Source: Chitinophaga pinensis | Lineage (GTDB): Bacteria; Bacteroidota; Bacteroidia; 2-12-FULL-35-15 | Direction: 5' to 3' | Length of the DNA: 64,000 nt | Assembly: GCA_945865315.1 (NCBI GenBank) | Contig: CAMBDK010000001.1 | Span: 4,378 to 68,377, forward strand | Shown: positions 32,187-58,948 of the stretch, one piece after another | How positions within the stretch are numbered: the stretch's first letter is position 1 | How the letters are laid out: the number at the start of each line of letters is the position of its first letter | Notes under the pieces: generated by a model | What the model was told of the DNA's origin: nothing | The model's database searches: none | The model's input: the letters and a program-made list of their open reading frames with translations, nothing else | Made by a program: the position numbers and the translations under genes

Positions 32187-35100
32187 TGATAAAATTAATA
32201 GAATTGAAAAAAATAATTTCCATATACCTTTTATTTCTAATAATATCCGTCCCTTCGGTATTTTCACAAACCGTTAATGTAACTATTATTTATAATGGAG
32301 CGCAATCACAGGGGTGTTGTAATGTTTGCGGTGTTGATTATTGGTGTATAAATAATACAGGAGGTTGCGGTACCACAGCCGCTTGCGATAACAGAACTTT
32401 TTCCGACCCTGTACCTGCCGGTAATATTATTACTGGGATTTCAGTAAATTATTTTGGAGCGGGTTGTGATGCACAATCTGAGCCTACCTTTATTAATGGC
32501 GTTTTTATAGGGGCTGCTCCCAGTGACGGGGCTTGCAGTTGTTATAACCCACCGACTTGCTCTTCATATCCTACAAGCAATACATTCCCTTGTCCAACAG
32601 GATTGCCTAGCTATAATTATGGTGGAAACAATGTTTTTCAATGTTGCCCTACCGATGCATTTTGTCCTCAAAGGGCAATAATTACTATTACCTATACCCC
32701 TGTATCGATAACGCCAACAGCTGCAACAGCTAGTCCCAATCCATCTTGTGGAGGAGCCATTACGCTTTCAAAAGTAGGGGGGGCATTAGGGGTAGGTGCT
32801 GTTTGGAAATGGTATTCTGGCTCCTGTGGTGGAACTCTTGTTGGTACAGGAGCTACTATTACGGTAACACCAACTGCCACTACCACATATTTTATTCGTG
32901 CAGAAGGTTCTGGCTGCGGCACTAGTGGATGTGCTCAAGTAACTGTTACAGTTAATAGTCTATCAGTTGACCCTACAGCTGCAACAGCAAGTCCTAGCAC
33001 TACCTGTGGAGGCGCTACTACACTTAATGTTACAGGAGGGTCTTTAGGTTCGGGAGCTTCATGGAAATGGTATTCATCATCATGTGGTGGAGCAGCCGAA
33101 GGAACAGGTGCATCTATTACCGTAAATCCTACTGCTACAACCACTTATTTCGTTAGAGCGGAAGGGCCCTGCAATAATACCAGTTGCGTTCAGGTGCTTG
33201 TTACCGTTAATCCTGTTCCATTTGCTATCGCAACACCTGCTGCTCAAACATTTTGCTCTGGAAATACTACGTCCATTAGTTTAACTAGCCTTACCCCAGG
33301 TACAACTTTTGCATGGACTGTTGTTCAAACTGGAGTTTCCGGAGCTACAAATAACTCAGGAACCTTAATTGCTGAAACATTAACTTCATTAAGCGGGGTG
33401 CAAGGTACAGCAGTTTATACAATTACACCAACAGCAAATTCCTGTGCTGGTAATCCTATAACTGTAACAATTACAGTAGATCCGGTACCAGTAATAACAG
33501 CAACACCTTTAAACCAAACAATATGTGCTGGTACAATTTTACCGACTTTTTTAACAAGTAATGTTTCTGGTTTAGTGTTTACATGGACTGTTGTTGAAAC
33601 AGGTGTTTCAGGAGGAACAAATTCTTCAGGAACAACTATTTCTGATTCATTGATTGCAACAGGAGGAGTTGCAGGTACCGCAGTTTATACAATTTCTACA
33701 ACTTCTAGTGGCTGTCCTGCCGCCTCTATTACTAATACCATTACCTTATTACCTGACCCAGGAACTTCAGCTACTGCAAGCCCTGCAATATCTACAATTT
33801 GCTCTGGAACATCTACTGCAATAACCTTATCTAGTGTTGCTATTGGTACTGTTTTTACCTGGACAGTATCAGAAGTAGGCGTAACTGGAGGTTCGGGTGG
33901 TACAGGTGCTACTATTTCTCAATTGTTAAATTGTGGATTAATACCAGGAACTGCAACTTATTCTGTAGCTTCTGATGCGAATGGCTGCATTGGAAATCCT
34001 ATTAATGTTGTAGTTACAGTTAATCCAACACCTATAGGAACAGCAACTCCATTAACAGAAACATTTTGTTCAGGCGACAGCACCTCTATTGTATTAACAA
34101 GCAATAATTCGGCAACTACATTTTCATGGACAGTTTTTCAATCAGGGGGAGTTACAGGAGCAACTTTTGGGACAGACACCATTATTCAACAAACCTTAAC
34201 AAATTCAGGAACAGCATCAGGTACAGCTGTTTATACCATTATACCAATTATAAATGCCTGTGCGGGTGCTCCTTTAATTGCAACCATTACTGTGAATCCC
34301 CTGGATGGCGCATCTTTTGTTTATTCATCCGCCACTTATTGTCAATCGGGCATTAATCCAACTCCTGTAATAACAGGTTTGTCGGGCGGAACATTTTCTA
34401 CTAATACACCGGGTTTATCTGTTGACCCATCAACAGGTACAATTACATTGGCCACAAGTGTTGTGGGGGCCTATAATCTGTGTTATTCAACTACAGGGAT
34501 TTGTCCCGATTCAAGTTGTATCCTAATGACAATTGAAAACTCTACACCATTTGCAGATTTCTCCTACTCAGGTTCTCCTTTTTGTCAAAATGGACTTAAT
34601 CCATTTCCTGTTTTTGTTCCTGGAGCCAGTGCTGGTGCTTTTTCCGCATCTCCAATTGGTTTGCAATTCATTAGTATCAATACCGGTGAAATTGACCTGG
34701 CAAATACTGTTCCAGGGTCTTATATCATAACAAATTTTATCCCCCAAAGCGGTTTTTGTGATCCTGTAACGGCTACTAGTGCAGTTGTTATTATTTCTTC
34801 AGATGATGCATCCTTCGTATATACTTCAGCAACTTATTGTACTACAGGAAGTCCACAAACACCCGTAGTTACTGGCTTATCAGGAGGTGTTTTCAGTTCT
34901 TCTCCTACAGGCTTGTCGTTAAACCCTTCAACAGGTACTATTACTTTATCAGCTAGCGCCTATGGTTCATACACACTTGTATATTCTACAAATGGTGTTT
35001 GTCCGAGCGCAGATTCAATTACCATGACAATTGATACCATTACTCCTTCTGCAACTTTTTCATACATCGGCTCGCCATTCTGTCAAAATGCGATTGATCC

Positions 35101-45676: not shown

Positions 45677-46372
45677 GTGCAAATATTTTTTTCTTATTGT
45701 AGTTTAATAATTCGGTACAGGATTTGTTTTAGCAGCCTTATGGCAAAAATAAAAATATTGTTTTCTTTTTTTTTACCCATATTTTGTTTGGCACAAAATA
45801 ATGTTTCTCCTGTTAAAGCACCATTGGGTAATAATTATAAAGGACTTCAATTGCCTGAAAAAGCAATTGAGGTTCAAGCTACTATTTATAATGGGGACAC
45901 AATACCTTATGTAATATTGCCAAGCATTGAATTTTATGTCCCTCGTTTTTTCAAAAACAAAAAAGATGCTGAAAAATGGAACAGATTGAAATTTAATGTC
46001 AGAAAAGTATATCCATATGCTATTTTAGCTGCCGCTAGGCTTAAAGAATACGAAAAAGTGATGTCAAAAATATCAAATGAAAATGAGAAAAAAAAATACA
46101 TGAAGCTTGCTGAAAAAAAATTAAAAGATGAATTTGGCAATGAATTGAAAAATTTGACCATGACGCAGGGCCGTATTTTAATAAAACTTATTGACCGAGA
46201 AACAGGTAAAACTGCGTTTAAAATTGTAAAAGAAATGCGTGGGACCTTTTCCGCCTTTATGTGGCAAAGTTTAGCTGTTTTGTTTAGCTCAAACCTTAAA
46301 GATCAGTACGATCCAAATTCTGAGGACAAAGCCATTGAGCAGGCAATAAAATTAATAGAAGATTTACAATAA
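45677..46372 (+). CDS. DUF4294-like secreted hypothetical protein
   Basis: Signal peptide (start probably the Met at 45740, MAKIKILFSFFLPIFCLAQ). Pattern ..IPYVILPSIEFYVPR..NVRKVYPYA.. is typical of the Bacteroidota DUF4294 family. Confidence 0.45.
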   Translation: MQIFFSYCSLIIRYRICFSSLMAKIKILFSFFLPIFCLAQNNVSPVKAPLGNNYKGLQLPEKAIEVQATIYNGDTIPYVILPSIEFYVPRFFKNKKDAEKWNRLKFNVRKVYPYAILAAARLKEYEKVMSKISNENEKKKYMKLAEKKLKDEFGNELKNLTMTQGRILIKLIDRETGKTAFKIVKEMRGTFSAFMWQSLAVLFSSNLKDQYDPNSEDKAIEQAIKLIEDLQ

Positions 46373-46496
46373 AATAAGCGGCATAAATTTTTATTGCCAG
46401 GTTATTAAAATTAATTGCAAACAATTTTTAAAGACTCTTGTAAATGATGGCATTTTAAATATAATTGTAAGTACATTTGTAAGCTAATCTAATAGC

Positions 46497-46538
46497 TAAT
46501 TATTAATTATTAATTATTAATTATTAATTATTAATTTA
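46497..46538. repeat. Heptanucleotide microsatellite (TAATTAT)x5 plus one degenerate unit (TAATTTA)
   Basis: Read directly from sequence: TAATTAT TAATTAT TAATTAT TAATTAT TAATTAT TAATTTA. It lies 65-106 bp upstream of the likely start (46603) of the first of two paralogous genes. Confidence 0.9.
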
Positions 46539-46602
46539 TGTTTAATTAAAGCTATCCTTGGTATTTGATGTTATATTTATTTTAAGAGTAAATTATCGAA
46601 AA

Positions 46603-47469
46603 ATGAAATTTAAAAAAATAAATTTAAAAGTATATTTTGCAATAACAGTTGGTTTTTTTCTGTTTACTTCCTTTAGTTATAAATACCAAAGTTTAGAAAA
46701 TAACTCTCGGGAAATATTGCTTGGTGTTTTGGAGTCTATTTCAAAAATTAAAACGATGCGTTACCATCTTCTTTGTAATGAAAGAATAAATGGTAAAATA
46801 CAGCAAACAGAGTCAAAGGTAAAGTTGCAAATATCGCCCAGGAAATTATATTTATCTTTAAAAGGCCCTGAGTTATTGTGGTTAGAAGGTCAAAATGATG
46901 GAGATGCCTTGATAAATCCGGGAGCTTTTCCATATATTAATCTTAACCTAGATCCATTTGGTTCATTTATGCGAAAGGGGCAGCACCATACAATTCATGA
47001 AATGGGTTTGAAATATCTTTCTCTTATTTTGAATGCAGCCATTAAACGAGCAGGCGATAGTTTTGAGAAGAATTTTGTTGTTGTTGGGGAAGAAAAATAC
47101 TATGGACGAGATTGTTATAAACTTTCTATTGCTTTTCCCGATTTTGTATGGAAATCATATACAGTAAAGAAAGGTGAAGACCTTATATCAATTGCTAGAA
47201 AGCTATTTGTAAGCGAATACATGATATTGGAAAGAAACCCCAAACTAAGCTGGTACGATGATGTAAAAGAAGGGCAAATTATACAAGTGCCAGATGCATA
47301 TGCAAAACTAACTGTGCTCTTAATAGATAAGAAAATTTTATTGCCTGTTAAAAATGAAATATTTGATGATAAGGGACTTTTCGAAGCTTACGAATTTTAT
47401 GATTTAGATGTAAATTTGCCAATAGCAGCCGAAGAATTTACTGAAAATTATAAAGATTATAATTTTTGA
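46603..47469 (+). CDS. Hypothetical secreted protein with LysM-like motif, paralog A
   Basis: Signal peptide MKFKKINLKVYFAITVGFFLF. Shares ..SPRKLY(L/I)S(L/M)K..LW(L/I)EG(Q/K)N.G.ALINP..FPYINLNLDP.G..MRK.QHHTIHE.G..Y..CYKLS..FPDF.W..YTVKK.E..ISIA.K..VSE.MILE..VKEG....VP..YAKL..IDK...LP...EIFDDKGLFE.YEFY.L.VN....AEEFTE.YKDY.F with the next gene. YTVKKGEDLISIARKLFVSEYMILERNP resembles a LysM fold. The ORF track starts at 46558. Confidence 0.45.
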   Translation: MKFKKINLKVYFAITVGFFLFTSFSYKYQSLENNSREILLGVLESISKIKTMRYHLLCNERINGKIQQTESKVKLQISPRKLYLSLKGPELLWLEGQNDGDALINPGAFPYINLNLDPFGSFMRKGQHHTIHEMGLKYLSLILNAAIKRAGDSFEKNFVVVGEEKYYGRDCYKLSIAFPDFVWKSYTVKKGEDLISIARKLFVSEYMILERNPKLSWYDDVKEGQIIQVPDAYAKLTVLLIDKKILLPVKNEIFDDKGLFEAYEFYDLDVNLPIAAEEFTENYKDYNF

Positions 47470-47514: not shown

Positions 47515-48384
47515 ATGATGAAATTAAAATTATACTTTTTGGTTAGAGGTGTTATATTGTTGATCGTTTGTTTGTTAATGGGCTCCTTTGGTAGCAAACA
47601 ACCGATAATAAAATATGATAGTCCCTCCATGTTAAATGAGATTATAAAATCAATAGCCAATGTAAAAACCCTTCGTTATGATTTAACACGCAACGAGCGA
47701 GTAAATGATAAAATACTCCTCTCAGAATCCAAGATTAAACTCAATGTTTCGCCACGTAAATTATATATTTCTATGAAAACTCAGGAAGTATTATGGATAG
47801 AAGGTAAAAACAATGGTAACGCCTTGATTAATCCTTTCACTTTTCCATACATTAACCTGAATTTGGATCCGATGGGAGCATTAATGCGCAAAAACCAGCA
47901 CCACACTATTCATGAGTTAGGAATGGAATACATTGCCGAAATTATAAAAAATGGAATGAAACATTATGGTGCTATGCTTTACAAACATTTTGTTATAATG
48001 GGGGAAGAAAAACATTTTGGAAGAAATTGCTATAAACTTTCGGCCACCTTTCCTGATTTTAAATGGTTGCCTTATACAGTTAAAAAGAACGAAACAATAA
48101 TTAGCATTGCCAATAAATTTAGTGTGAGCGAATTTATGATTTTAGAAAAAAAACAAGGAGCAACAGATTATAAGGACGTTAAAGAAGGAGAAGTCATACT
48201 TGTGCCGAATGTATATGCCAAATTGTTTTTTGTAATGATAGATAAGGAAAAGATGTTGCCGATAAGCGTGGAGATATTTGATGATAAAGGATTATTTGAA
48301 TCCTACGAATTTTATAATTTACAAGTAAATTCAACCATTTTGGCAGAGGAATTTACTGAAGATTACAAGGATTACCATTTTTAA
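47515..48384 (+). CDS. Hypothetical secreted protein with LysM-like motif, paralog B
   Basis: Tandem paralog of 46603..47469, collinear along its full length. Signal peptide MMKLKLYFLVRGVILLIVCLLMGSFG. Confidence 0.45.
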   Translation: MMKLKLYFLVRGVILLIVCLLMGSFGSKQPIIKYDSPSMLNEIIKSIANVKTLRYDLTRNERVNDKILLSESKIKLNVSPRKLYISMKTQEVLWIEGKNNGNALINPFTFPYINLNLDPMGALMRKNQHHTIHELGMEYIAEIIKNGMKHYGAMLYKHFVIMGEEKHFGRNCYKLSATFPDFKWLPYTVKKNETIISIANKFSVSEFMILEKKQGATDYKDVKEGEVILVPNVYAKLFFVMIDKEKMLPISVEIFDDKGLFESYEFYNLQVNSTILAEEFTEDYKDYHF

Positions 48385-48475: not shown

Positions 48476-49975
48476 TTGTGTTATATTTGTAATAGAATAA
48501 TTTTAACATATACACTTATGTTAAGGCAGATACAATCACAAAAATTACTTCAAAAACTTTCGCCCCAGCAAATTCAATTAATGAAATTGTTGCAGTTGCC
48601 AACTATTGCCCTTGAGCAACGAATAAAAGAGGAGATGGAAATTAACCCAGCTTTAGAGGAGGGATCAGAAGAGGAAGATGAAATTAATACTGATTTTGAG
48701 GAAGAAAATTATGATGATTTATCCAAAAATGATGAAAATCAGCGCAATGATTTTAGTATAAGTGATTACATGGATGAAGACGAAGGCGTTTCCTATAAGC
48801 TAAAAGTGAATAATACAAGCGCTGAAGAAGAACGAAAAGAAATTCCTTTTTCTGTAGGTGTTACATTTCAGGATATGCTTGATAGTCAGCTTGGTTTAAA
48901 AGAGCTTAACGACCATCAATATCAAATAGCTAATTATTTAATTGGTAACTTAGATGATGATGGATATTTGCGCAGAGAGTTAAATTCCATCATTGACGAT
49001 ATAGCATTTTCACAAAATATAATAACAACTGAAAAAGAATTAAATGATTTACTAAAGGTAATTCAAGAGTTTGACCCTGCCGGTGTTGGTGCCCGTGATT
49101 TACGTGAATGTTTGCTGATACAATTACAGCGCAAAAAACCTTATACTAAAATTATTGAGCTAGCTATTAAAGTTGTAAACGAACAAATGGAGGAGTTCTC
49201 AAAAAAACATTTTGATAAAATTTTAAAAAATCTTGACATAGACGATGATTTGCTTAAGGAGGTAATTCAAGAAATTTTGAAACTGAATCCTCGCCCTGGA
49301 AATTCTATGTCCGATGGTCAAAAAAGCCATCAGCAAATAATAGCAGATTTTACTATTACCAATGAAGATGGTGAACTTTTGCTAGTTTTAAACTCACGCA
49401 ACGCTCCCGATTTGAGGGTTAACAAGCAATACAGTCAAATGTTGGGTGAGTATTCAAAAGAAAAAAACAAAAATACCAAAGAAGCCTCTGTTTTCGTAAA
49501 ACAAAAATTAGATGGTGCGAAATGGTTTATAGATGCAATACAGCAAAGGAGCCAAACATTGCTATATACGATGAATGCCATAATGGAATACCAGCGCAAT
49601 TATTTTTTAGAAGGAGATGAAACATTATTAAAACCAATGATATTAAAGGACATTGCTGAAAGGGTAGGGCTAGATATTTCTACTGTTTCGCGGGTGGCGA
49701 ACAGTAAATATGTTCAAACTTCTTTTGGTACATTTTTATTGAAATCATTTTTTAGTGAATCCCTTTCTACTGATAGCGGTGAGGAAGTATCCACCAGGGA
49801 AGTAAAAAAAATATTAAAAGATTGCATTGATGCCGAAGGAAAAAAGAAACCATTGACAGATGATAAGCTCACCAAAATATTAAAGGAGAAAGGTTATAAC
49901 ATTGCCCGCAGAACAATAGCAAAATATCGTGAACAGCTAGATATACCAGTAGCCCGTTTAAGAAAAGAGTTGTAA
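48476..49975 (+). CDS. rpoN: RNA polymerase sigma-54 factor
   Basis: N-terminal region I (LRQIQSQKLLQKLSPQQIQLMKLLQLP), acidic region II, core-binding region, and C-terminal HTH plus RpoN box (ARRTIAKYREQLDIP). The real start is probably the Met at 48518. Confidence 0.85.
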   Translation: MCYICNRIILTYTLMLRQIQSQKLLQKLSPQQIQLMKLLQLPTIALEQRIKEEMEINPALEEGSEEEDEINTDFEEENYDDLSKNDENQRNDFSISDYMDEDEGVSYKLKVNNTSAEEERKEIPFSVGVTFQDMLDSQLGLKELNDHQYQIANYLIGNLDDDGYLRRELNSIIDDIAFSQNIITTEKELNDLLKVIQEFDPAGVGARDLRECLLIQLQRKKPYTKIIELAIKVVNEQMEEFSKKHFDKILKNLDIDDDLLKEVIQEILKLNPRPGNSMSDGQKSHQQIIADFTITNEDGELLLVLNSRNAPDLRVNKQYSQMLGEYSKEKNKNTKEASVFVKQKLDGAKWFIDAIQQRSQTLLYTMNAIMEYQRNYFLEGDETLLKPMILKDIAERVGLDISTVSRVANSKYVQTSFGTFLLKSFFSESLSTDSGEEVSTREVKKILKDCIDAEGKKKPLTDDKLTKILKEKGYNIARRTIAKYREQLDIPVARLRKEL

Positions 49976-57931: not shown

Positions 57932-58948
57932 ATGAAAAACAGAACATTTTATATTTTTATATTATTGATATTATCTGCAAAAATGAATGCGCAGGTATTC
58001 GATACTGTATTTGAATACGATAAAGTTATAGTTTATGATACCATAAAAGTTTATGATACCGTAAAAGTAGAAGATAAAATATTGAAAAAATTACAAGGTT
58101 TTGAAAATAATTTTGAAAATAATTTTAATGCTGAAAGCGCTGTGTTAGCAATTGATACAGCCAGTAAAAAAGCAGAATTAGTACTCTTTAATAAAAATGA
58201 TACTGCAACCATTTCAATTAATAGCATCATACTAAGTGAACCAAATAAAAACTTAGAAAAAATGAAAAAAGAAATCTTATTATTGGCTGCTGCAGCAATG
58301 CTGAATCAGTCAGGTTTTGCTCAGGAAGGCAAAACAAATACCGCTACAAGCGAAGAAACTCTTCCCGGATTTACAATTGGTGTGGGGGCTGTTTTGGCTG
58401 CCACTATGGATGGATATGTCCAAGGGATACATTTGAAAGCAAACAAATTTGTTAATTCAAAATTAGGGTTTGGCATTAGCAGTGATATTGGAAGAATGCA
58501 TGAGAAAGGCTTTAATGGGGGAAGTGAAGTTGGAAATTTAGTAATAGGAAATACTAGTGGTCTCTATGCCAATTTTTTTGCTACCGCAAGCTATTACTTA
58601 TTGGGCAAAACAACAAGTAAAGCGGGCATGTATACTAAGTTAGGGATTGGAGTTCTTGGATACAGGACAGAACAAACTCAATCGGCAGTTGGCTATAGTA
58701 ATGTGTCTAAATCTAAATTATCAGCATCAAGTTTTTCTTCACAACTTTGTTTGGGCGTGGATTTCAAGCTTGGTAATGGAAGAGTGTTTACAGAAATTGA
58801 TGCCCTTCCGAGTTTTGTTGGACAGCGATCTCTTGTTATACTAAATTCCGATCCACCAGACCCAGCCTATAAAACAGTATTTCCTGATTGGAATTTTAAA
58901 AAACCATTGCAATCTAGTTTTCGCATTGGTTATGTAATCAATTTTTAA
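57932..58948 (+). CDS. Hypothetical outer-membrane (beta-barrel-like) protein; ORF contains two in-frame signal peptides
   Basis: N-terminal MKNRTFYIFILLILSAKMNAQ, and a second textbook signal peptide at codon 111 (MKKEILLLAAAAMLNQSGFAQ, ATG at 58262). C-terminal alternating hydrophobic strands ending in ..RIGYVINF (terminal Phe) suggest an OM beta-barrel. Confidence 0.4.
   Translation: MKNRTFYIFILLILSAKMNAQVFDTVFEYDKVIVYDTIKVYDTVKVEDKILKKLQGFENNFENNFNAESAVLAIDTASKKAELVLFNKNDTATISINSIILSEPNKNLEKMKKEILLLAAAAMLNQSGFAQEGKTNTATSEETLPGFTIGVGAVLAATMDGYVQGIHLKANKFVNSKLGFGISSDIGRMHEKGFNGGSEVGNLVIGNTSGLYANFFATASYYLLGKTTSKAGMYTKLGIGVLGYRTEQTQSAVGYSNVSKSKLSASSFSSQLCLGVDFKLGNGRVFTEIDALPSFVGQRSLVILNSDPPDPAYKTVFPDWNFKKPLQSSFRIGYVINF

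Follow-up and report, generated by a model that had tools for sequence, protein, structure and literature searches.

A length-polymorphic heptanucleotide microsatellite upstream of a tandem DUF1571-LysM gene pair in a freshwater member of the Bacteroidota

Results

Genes at the locus

The repeat array described here lies in a stretch of DNA of 64,000 nt that was analysed as a whole (hereafter, the window), within the 230-nt spacer between a gene of the DUF4294 family (45740..46372, + strand; Pfam, 5.9e-53) and the first gene of a tandem pair. The two genes of the pair, paralog A (46603..47469, + strand) and paralog B (47515..48384, + strand), which starts 45 nt past paralog A, encode proteins that are 55% identical (E 2e-116), and they are probably co-transcribed. 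Both proteins have Pfam matches to DUF1571 (about 1e-17 and 1e-16) and to LysM, and each has an N-terminal hydrophobic helix, confirming the tandem paralog pair that a preliminary description of this DNA had noted downstream of the repeat. The AlphaFold model of paralog A (pLDDT 73) has a hydrophobic helix at its N terminus, and in Foldseek it matched LolA3, RseB, MucB, LprG and LolA with E values of 2e-7 to 1e-4. Based on the Pfam matches, the hydrophobic helix and the Foldseek matches, the paralogs are thus predicted to be envelope proteins of the LolA superfamily (DUF1571) with an inserted LysM domain. We found no literature on DUF1571, nor on the GROS21 sample series that supplied some of the scaffolds compared below. 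The start codon of paralog A is the ATG at 46603 and not the TTG at 46558, because the former aligns with the MKFK start of the relatives' proteins. Further downstream lies rpoN, which encodes sigma-54 (48518..49975, + strand; Pfam) and is preceded by a perfect TATATTTG box 36 nt upstream.

Tandem arrays of two to three DUF1571-LysM paralogs are found in dozens of metagenome-assembled genomes (MAGs) of uncultured Bacteroidota from freshwater, soil and groundwater and in most of the related MAGs compared here (loci L008-L069), and in the closest relatives the paralog array lies directly upstream of rpoN. The DUF1571-LysM fold resembles RseB and MucB, which are anti-sigma partners, as well as LolA, and rpoN is adjacent. 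Elsewhere in the window, positions 19315-26462 hold a co-directional cluster for purine/urate catabolism, in which the Pfam names on matching contigs are Urate_ox_N, amidohydrolase, allantoicase, OHCU decarboxylase, transthyretin-like HIU hydrolase and DUF6986. A search for tRNA genes found none.

A heptanucleotide array beyond chance expectation

The array, (TAATTAT)x5 followed by TAATT, occupies 46497..46536 (+ strand), and the sequence of 46491-46540 reads AATAGC (TAATTAT)x5 TAATT TATG. In TRF it is the top of 66 rows for the window, with a period of 7, 5.7 copies, 100% matches and a score of 80 at 46497-46536. With TAATTTA at 46532-38 counted as a sixth, degenerate unit, the array lies 65-106 nt upstream of the ATG at 46603, and the five perfect units plus one degenerate unit of the preliminary description are borne out by both TRF and the sequence itself. 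Each unit contains a TAATTA palindrome, and the array is quasi-palindromic, with 89% self-complementarity.

Two comparisons address the rarity of such a tract, which had been surmised earlier and which holds for this window. First, among perfect tandem arrays of period 4-9, none in the window exceeds the 40 nt of this one, while in Markov-simulated windows (n=120; orders 1, 3 and 5) the longest reach 20-22 nt. Second, a three-unit 21-mer allowing ≤3 mismatches matches at the array only (11 overlapping matches), against 0.18 matches expected in the window; a second (TAATTAT)2 was found neither in the rest of the window nor in 398 kb of the relatives' loci. The excess length and the single 21-mer site exclude chance as the origin of the array, and the proper null for it is that of a microsatellite arisen through slippage. 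A 6-bp inverted repeat, ATAGCT...AGCTAT (46492-46497 and 46550-46555), flanks the array together with the conserved element described below; it forms the outer stem of the minimum free energy (MFE) RNA folds of both the 5-unit and the 2-unit allele and may well be due to chance.

The array lies between candidate promoters

In Flavobacterium psychrophilum, the sigma-A box lies at -12 to -5, and 5'-UTRs have a median length of 24 nt and a mean length of 65 nt (PMC9723704). Exact TAnnTTTG boxes, often extended to TAnnTTTGta, lie 25-60 nt upstream of many start codons in the window. The only perfect box in the spacer is the candidate promoter P1, a Bacteroidota sigma-A -7 box TACATTTG followed by TA (TACATTTGta; 46472..46479, + strand), which ends 17 nt upstream of the array and is kept in a lineage that is 2% diverged from that of the window. 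Its predicted transcription start site at ~46484 would place the array at +14 to +53 of a 119-nt leader. Two imperfect boxes are found on the other side of the array. The putative P2a (TATCCTTG; 46553..46560, + strand) has one mismatch to TAnnTTTG and, in a MAFFT alignment with 10 relatives, is the positional orthologue of their conserved TATCTTTA box; from a predicted start at ~46565, the 3' end of the array would be at ~-29. The putative P2b (TATATTTA; 46572..46579, + strand), a 7/8 match to the -7 box with a predicted start at ~46584, lies 31 nt before the ATG at 46603, a distance typical for promoters in the window and for flavobacterial 5'-UTRs. P2a and P2b lie 17 and 36 nt downstream of the 3' end of the array, and this distance is fixed.

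This geometry bears on how the tract might act. The preliminary description had suggested that the repeat lies between or over promoter elements and alters their spacing, and that the unit itself resembles a -7 box, so that copy number could create or destroy a promoter. Because P1 lies upstream of the entire array, and P2a and P2b keep a constant distance from its 3' end, unit changes leave the -33/-7 spacing of every candidate promoter unaltered. Moreover, an exact-match scan found no TAnnTTTG inside the array, be it within units or at junctions, and TAATTATT and TAATTTAT both lack the conserved TTTG. Thus, with spacing unaltered and no box in the array, both mechanistic suggestions fail. 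The geometry leaves three effects possible, i.e., an effect of length or composition on the leader made from P1, a shift of the upstream DNA relative to P2 in distance and helical phase (~240 degrees per unit), and an altered number of TAATTA half-sites beside TTAATT-N7-AATTAA. Visual inspection of the intergenic region, prompted by the nearby rpoN, showed no sigma-54 promoter (GG-N10-GC), and a scan for sigma-70-type promoters, the consensus of which is not that of Bacteroidota, gave no more matches than shuffled sequence.

Possible transcription across the array

A contig of 3210 nt (L099, IMG 3300013295) from a co-assembly of 24 Quebec lake metatranscriptomes (preprint 10.1101/324970) runs unbroken from the end of accC through the DUF4294 gene, the spacer with a 2-unit array and both paralogs to rpoN, five co-directional genes in all. 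It suggests a long read-through transcript or overlapping transcripts. A terminator scan found no terminator-like site between the DUF4294 gene and the array; together with the contig, this favours the presence of RNA over the array, originating from P1 or from read-through, with carry-over of genomic DNA as the alternative. Against the switch that it proposed, the preliminary description had set the case of an array of invariant copy number that is merely 5'-UTR. The metatranscriptome contig fits 5'-UTR or read-through RNA, but copy number varies, as described below. A further contig with the locus, L100 (IMG 3300012776), was noted beside L099.

The putative leader RNA folds no better than shuffled sequences, with an MFE of -17.6 kcal/mol and z = -0.6 for 5 units and z = +0.3 for 2 units, and the same holds for the DNA fold of the array. 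The leader contains no sequence complementary to the array. Rfam gave no match in the whole window at gathering thresholds, nor in 46300-46700 at E ≤ 10. A structured riboregulator or a hairpin like that of the hmw genes of Haemophilus influenzae was rejected because the folds of leader and array match those of shuffles.

Copy number differs between populations

The locus was gathered from metagenome assemblies by exact-protein look-ups, with each sample counted once, giving 26 metagenome or metatranscriptome contigs with near-identical flanks and, including the window, 27 complete arrays. Samples with the locus include those of assemblies ERZ27280286, ERZ27280251, ERZ19401228 and ERZ19567720. 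The comparison of copy number across strains that had been proposed earlier shows it to be variable: two units in 16 of the contigs, three in five, four in four and five in one, as in the window. None of the 27 complete arrays has more than five units. The 2-unit arrays comprise those of 10 samples of the main lineage and those of all six contigs of a ~2%-diverged lineage, where TACTTTA stands in place of an intact third unit. When JGI metagenome contigs were scanned twice for exact patterns of the array and its flanks, no match was obtained; the JGI contigs with the locus all belong to the diverged lineage, and their flank reads TACTTTATG.

The variation is specific to the array. Across 7.1 kb aligned in 12 sequences, no indel other than the array is present, against 41 SNP columns. 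A 21.3-kb control region compared in seven sequences has 117 SNP columns and five bi-allelic indels, namely four 1-nt homopolymer changes and one 9-nt in-frame change. Taken together, the two comparisons make the array the only multi-allelic length polymorphism in ~28 kb, and the tract is a genuine hot spot of slippage-type length change. The homopolymer indels lie at window positions 20937, 24956, 31522 and 31619, in intergenic A- or T-tracts that are 1 nt longer or shorter between strains. The 9-nt indel (32545-32553) lies in a locally diverged segment of the gene for a 1721-aa Ig/PKD/CHU_C (T9SS-type) surface protein and divides the strains into two allele classes of 1721 and 1718 aa. For the protein at 57932-58948, considered as a second control region, the look-up gave no record. 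Gene calls differ between contigs at the beginning of paralog B, which suggested another variable site there; this was rejected because the alignment shows only scaffold N-gaps and differences between gene callers.

Short-read assemblers can collapse or expand repeats, and copy-number differences might arise in that way. In Logan assemblies (k=31), contigs indeed break in the array in three samples (contigs L006, L007, L079 and L084 end exactly inside it); runs with such breaks are ERR3761223, ERR12084958 and ERR11452331. However, Logan crosses 3-unit arrays (26 nt, <31) and breaks only where the repeat is ≥30 nt, as expected; the breaks are normal behaviour of a de Bruijn graph and not a sign of heterogeneity. 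Moreover, the arrays span 19-40 nt, far below read length and k=141, and k141 contigs, GROS21 scaffolds and Logan contigs repeatedly give the same allele classes, linked to SNPs. An assembly artefact is therefore scarcely credible as the source of the variation. The tract nevertheless fragments assemblies of this species at k=31, since these end in the array once the repeat reaches 30 nt.

Copy number mostly follows strain haplotype

Over 1.73 kb, copy number mostly tracks the SNP haplotype. At an A/T SNP at 46482 (+ strand), at -2 of the predicted P1 start, 12 of the 13 contigs with T, the state of the diverged lineage, have 2-unit arrays, with L002 as the main-lineage exception. A clade with A at 46198 has five, five and four units. 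Identical 1.7-kb haplotypes from different samples have equal counts, as in L004 and L077 (two units) and in L072 and L078 (three units). The match is imperfect, in that L089 and L091 have three units on the haplotype of L004 (two units), and L003 (five units) and L004 are one SNP apart. At an A/G SNP at 46587 (+ strand), near the predicted P2b start, A is found in the window and L075 only.

The mismatches between haplotype and count imply at least four length changes (seven if changes occur in single steps), against ~15 SNP sites in the main lineage. Roughly, the array would thus change at ~500-800 times the per-site substitution density (order 10^2.5-10^3), a crude estimate that uses consensus contigs and ignores recombination and selection. 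With ordinary bacterial per-site rates, this would correspond to ~1e-7 to 1e-6 changes per generation. For contingency loci, ~1e-3 changes per division are reported (PMC11475388). The tracking of haplotypes and the estimated rate therefore argue for a rate far below that of contingency loci. We conclude that the array is a moderately hypermutable microsatellite, with changes on the timescale over which strains diverge. Because the outgroup and the modal state both have two units, the ancestral state is probably two units, and the 5-unit tract of the window, the longest allele seen, would be a recent expansion. Assemblies report only the majority allele of each population, so that minority length variants within a sample, by which fast switching would be recognised, would be invisible.

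The array abuts a conserved promoter-proximal element

Among the loci of 62 related species, none has a TAATTAT array or a perfect simple-sequence repeat (SSR) at the equivalent position; only degenerate 7-8-bp repeats are present, at other positions. No protein relatives at 72%-99% identity were found with which the array could be traced into sister species. Given the absence from the 62 species and this gap in identity, the tract appears confined to one species-level lineage, and the absence from relatives leaves no sign of selection keeping a repeat at this position. In two of the other species, degenerate 8-bp tandem repeats (GGTTATTG- or GGTTAATT-like, ~5 copies, 76-77% matches) begin exactly where a DUF1571-LysM paralog has its stop codon (L043 2830-2874; L044 3864-3902). 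Two MAGs have ~ten 21-bp units (AGCATCGAAAGGTTAGCAAAA; TTCTCCCCTCGTAAAAATCAC) in intergenic or ORF-poor DNA near the paralogs (L042 3967-4174; L054 99-314).

What is conserved is the DNA next to the array. Relatives with 60-70% protein identity share a strongly conserved block, GATTAATTTTATTTTGAATAAAATGcAAGTATCTTTAC, 20-35 nt before the ATG. In L008-L013, L026, L028, L029 and L038, it falls ~20-70 nt ahead of the first DUF1571-LysM gene (e.g., L008 2930-2975). In the MAFFT alignment with 10 relatives, the box of GATTAATTTTATTTTGAATAAAATGcAAGTATCTTTAC pairs with P2a, and its AT-rich element pairs with the last partial unit of the array plus TTTATGTTTAATTAAAGC; the stretch from the last partial unit into the flank (TAATTTATGTTTAATTAAAGC; 46532..46552, + strand) aligns with the relatives' conserved promoter-proximal element GATTAATTTTATTTTGAATAAAATGC. 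Because this element pairs with the last partial unit, the array abuts it. The alignment suggests that the array probably grew out of the element by duplication at its 5' edge. The block also holds a perfect 8-bp inverted repeat, ATTTTATT-TTG-AATAAAAT, directly 5' of the -7-like box, and looks like a putative operator overlapping the promoter.

These features raise the alternative that the array is a protein-binding array, in which the TAATTA palindromes would be iterated half-sites for a regulator or nucleoid protein, or in which the tract would be an AT-rich UP-like element, with the number of units setting occupancy. The last unit forms the left arm of TTAATT-N7-AATTAA, which aligns with the strongly conserved inverted repeat of the relatives just 5' of the -7 box, and, relative to the proximal promoters, the array would span about -29 to -90. 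However, a 7-bp period puts successive sites on different faces of the helix, there is no candidate regulator, the relatives manage with a single element, and most strains have only two units. As for the UP-like version, sigma-A promoters of Bacteroidota are not known to rely on UP elements, which counts against it. On balance, we regard a protein-binding array as improbable.

Discussion

Here, we describe a perfect heptanucleotide tract in the spacer upstream of a DUF1571-LysM gene pair that exists in two to five units among closely related freshwater strains. The preliminary description had proposed a slipped-strand switch for phase variation. The slippage part of this proposal stands in that tract length varies from two to five units between populations, while the proposed switch mechanism is unsupported. 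We consider it probable that the tract is a microsatellite of recent origin, polymorphic and specific to one species, which lies in a leader or upstream region and at most modestly tunes expression at the level of strains. In this scenario, replication slippage would have acted on a proto-repeat of 2.7 units bordering the conserved AT-rich promoter-proximal element on its 5' side, and stepwise growth would have led to three, four and five units within a single, very shallow lineage of this uncultured freshwater species of Bacteroidota. The array would then lie between the distal, perfect P1 box and the proximal, imperfect P2a and P2b, so that it would serve as leader for transcripts from P1 or from read-through and as far-upstream or -33-flanking DNA for P2. 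Changes in unit number would only lengthen an AU-rich leader or displace P1, along with the DNA upstream, in steps of 7 bp. Most likely, expression of the DUF1571-LysM pair is unaffected or differs modestly from strain to strain, and rapid, reversible ON/OFF switching is unlikely.

The array belongs to a known class of heptanucleotide simple-sequence repeats. According to the survey of long prokaryotic SSRs with units of 5-11 nt by Mrazek et al. 2007, as related in PMC4679880, heptanucleotides are the commonest class, and such repeats are often intergenic, occur sporadically across lineages and are ascribed to polymerase slippage. The array fits this heptanucleotide class at its short end, the class being, as related there, purely statistical and implying no function. 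In line with a polymorphic microsatellite of this kind, the array exceeds chance expectation, has stepwise alleles, is restricted to one lineage and is not conserved in sister taxa. Heptamer direct repeats with the unit TAACTGA are known from Beggiatoaceae, Cyanobacteria and a few Bacteroidetes, in which two to six intergenic copies lie upstream of start codons, at many sites per genome and mostly 1-43 nt from the start codon (PMC4679880). The array described here differs from these in its unit, in being the single array in 64 kb and in lying 65 nt upstream of the start codon.

Several arguments speak against reading the tract as an ordinary microsatellite. First, no site found is more variable in length, and the tract occupies the regulatory zone of envelope-protein genes, which is the classical setting of a contingency locus. 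Second, the arrays in the three Logan samples in which contigs break could exceed five units. Third, the rotation by 240 degrees per 7-bp step could matter if there is an upstream activator site or an interplay between P1 and P2. In an alternative reading, the tract would be an expression-tuning SSR of the contingency type, its length giving graded or phase-variable expression of the DUF1571-LysM genes. Tuning would act either post-transcriptionally in the leader made from P1, on the model of hmw, or through a shift of upstream elements against the proximal promoter, on the model of nadA. Taking both routes together, we see this alternative as possible but not likely.

Like contingency loci, the array is a perfect tract in a 5' region and differs in length among close strains. 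Four alleles exist among near-identical strains in what is the only multi-allelic indel in ~28 kb; the array sits between candidate promoters, 5' of genes whose products have a signal-like N terminus, a LysM domain and a LolA-like fold; its 7-bp unit is a multiple of neither 3 nor the helical repeat; and its quasi-palindromic units favour hairpin-mediated slippage. A close precedent is that of the (ATCTTTC)n tracts of hmw1A and hmw2A in H. influenzae, which share with the array a 7-bp unit upstream of two paralogous genes for envelope or surface proteins. The hmw tracts lie downstream of the promoter, are transcribed in the 5'-UTR and vary in copy number among strains; they have 11-63 units, change within patients and form a long RNase III hairpin between ~10 repeats and a complementary, G-rich partner downstream (PMC12721329; PMC11475388). 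Because the hmw heptamer acts from the 5'-UTR, a position of the array merely in the 5'-UTR leaves a function possible. By contrast with hmw, the array has only 2-5 units, lacks a partner sequence and a stable fold in the leader and has a count that follows haplotype and stays constant between samples sharing one; a hairpin of the hmw type is thus not found. Also, a single tract precedes the tandem pair in the window, whereas the hmw paralogs lie at separate loci with their own tract each.

Another precedent is the (TAAA)n tract of nadA in Neisseria meningitidis, an AT-rich SSR upstream of the core promoter. There, a change in unit number alters the spacing of upstream regulatory elements rather than that between -35 and -10 (PMC11475388). 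From the positions of the candidate boxes, a mechanism of the nadA type is the only spacing mechanism that would be geometrically possible at the array, and it would concern P2. In nadA, the regulators are IHF and NadR, and switching has been measured. The nadA unit has 4 bp as compared to 7 bp here.

Further observations weigh against expression tuning. The modal and probably ancestral state is the minimal one of two units, the array is not conserved, and no analogous SSR exists at this position in the 62 related species. Typically, SSR contingency loci belong to pathogens that have small genomes and are adapted to a host (PMC11475388), while this organism is free-living in lakes. We therefore prefer the polymorphic microsatellite, and we find it unlikely that a free-living freshwater member of the Bacteroidota, a phylum otherwise noted for its invertible promoters, uses a short heptanucleotide tract upstream of a LolA-like/LysM pair for heritable grades of expression at the level of strains or populations, which would be an SSR contingency system beyond host-adapted pathogens.

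The two outcomes would differ in what they mean. Should the tract do no more than mark strains, it would be an ordinary microsatellite and still a high-resolution strain marker for a lake bacterium. If it tunes the DUF1571-LysM genes, regulation by SSR contingency loci would extend to free-living members of the Bacteroidota in the plankton, as well as to LolA-like envelope proteins of an uncharacterised family with frequent linkage to rpoN. Because 2-, 3-, 4- and 5-unit alleles on almost identical backgrounds exist in public samples, the question is cheaply testable. The array also serves as a warning that assemblies with k=31 break there.
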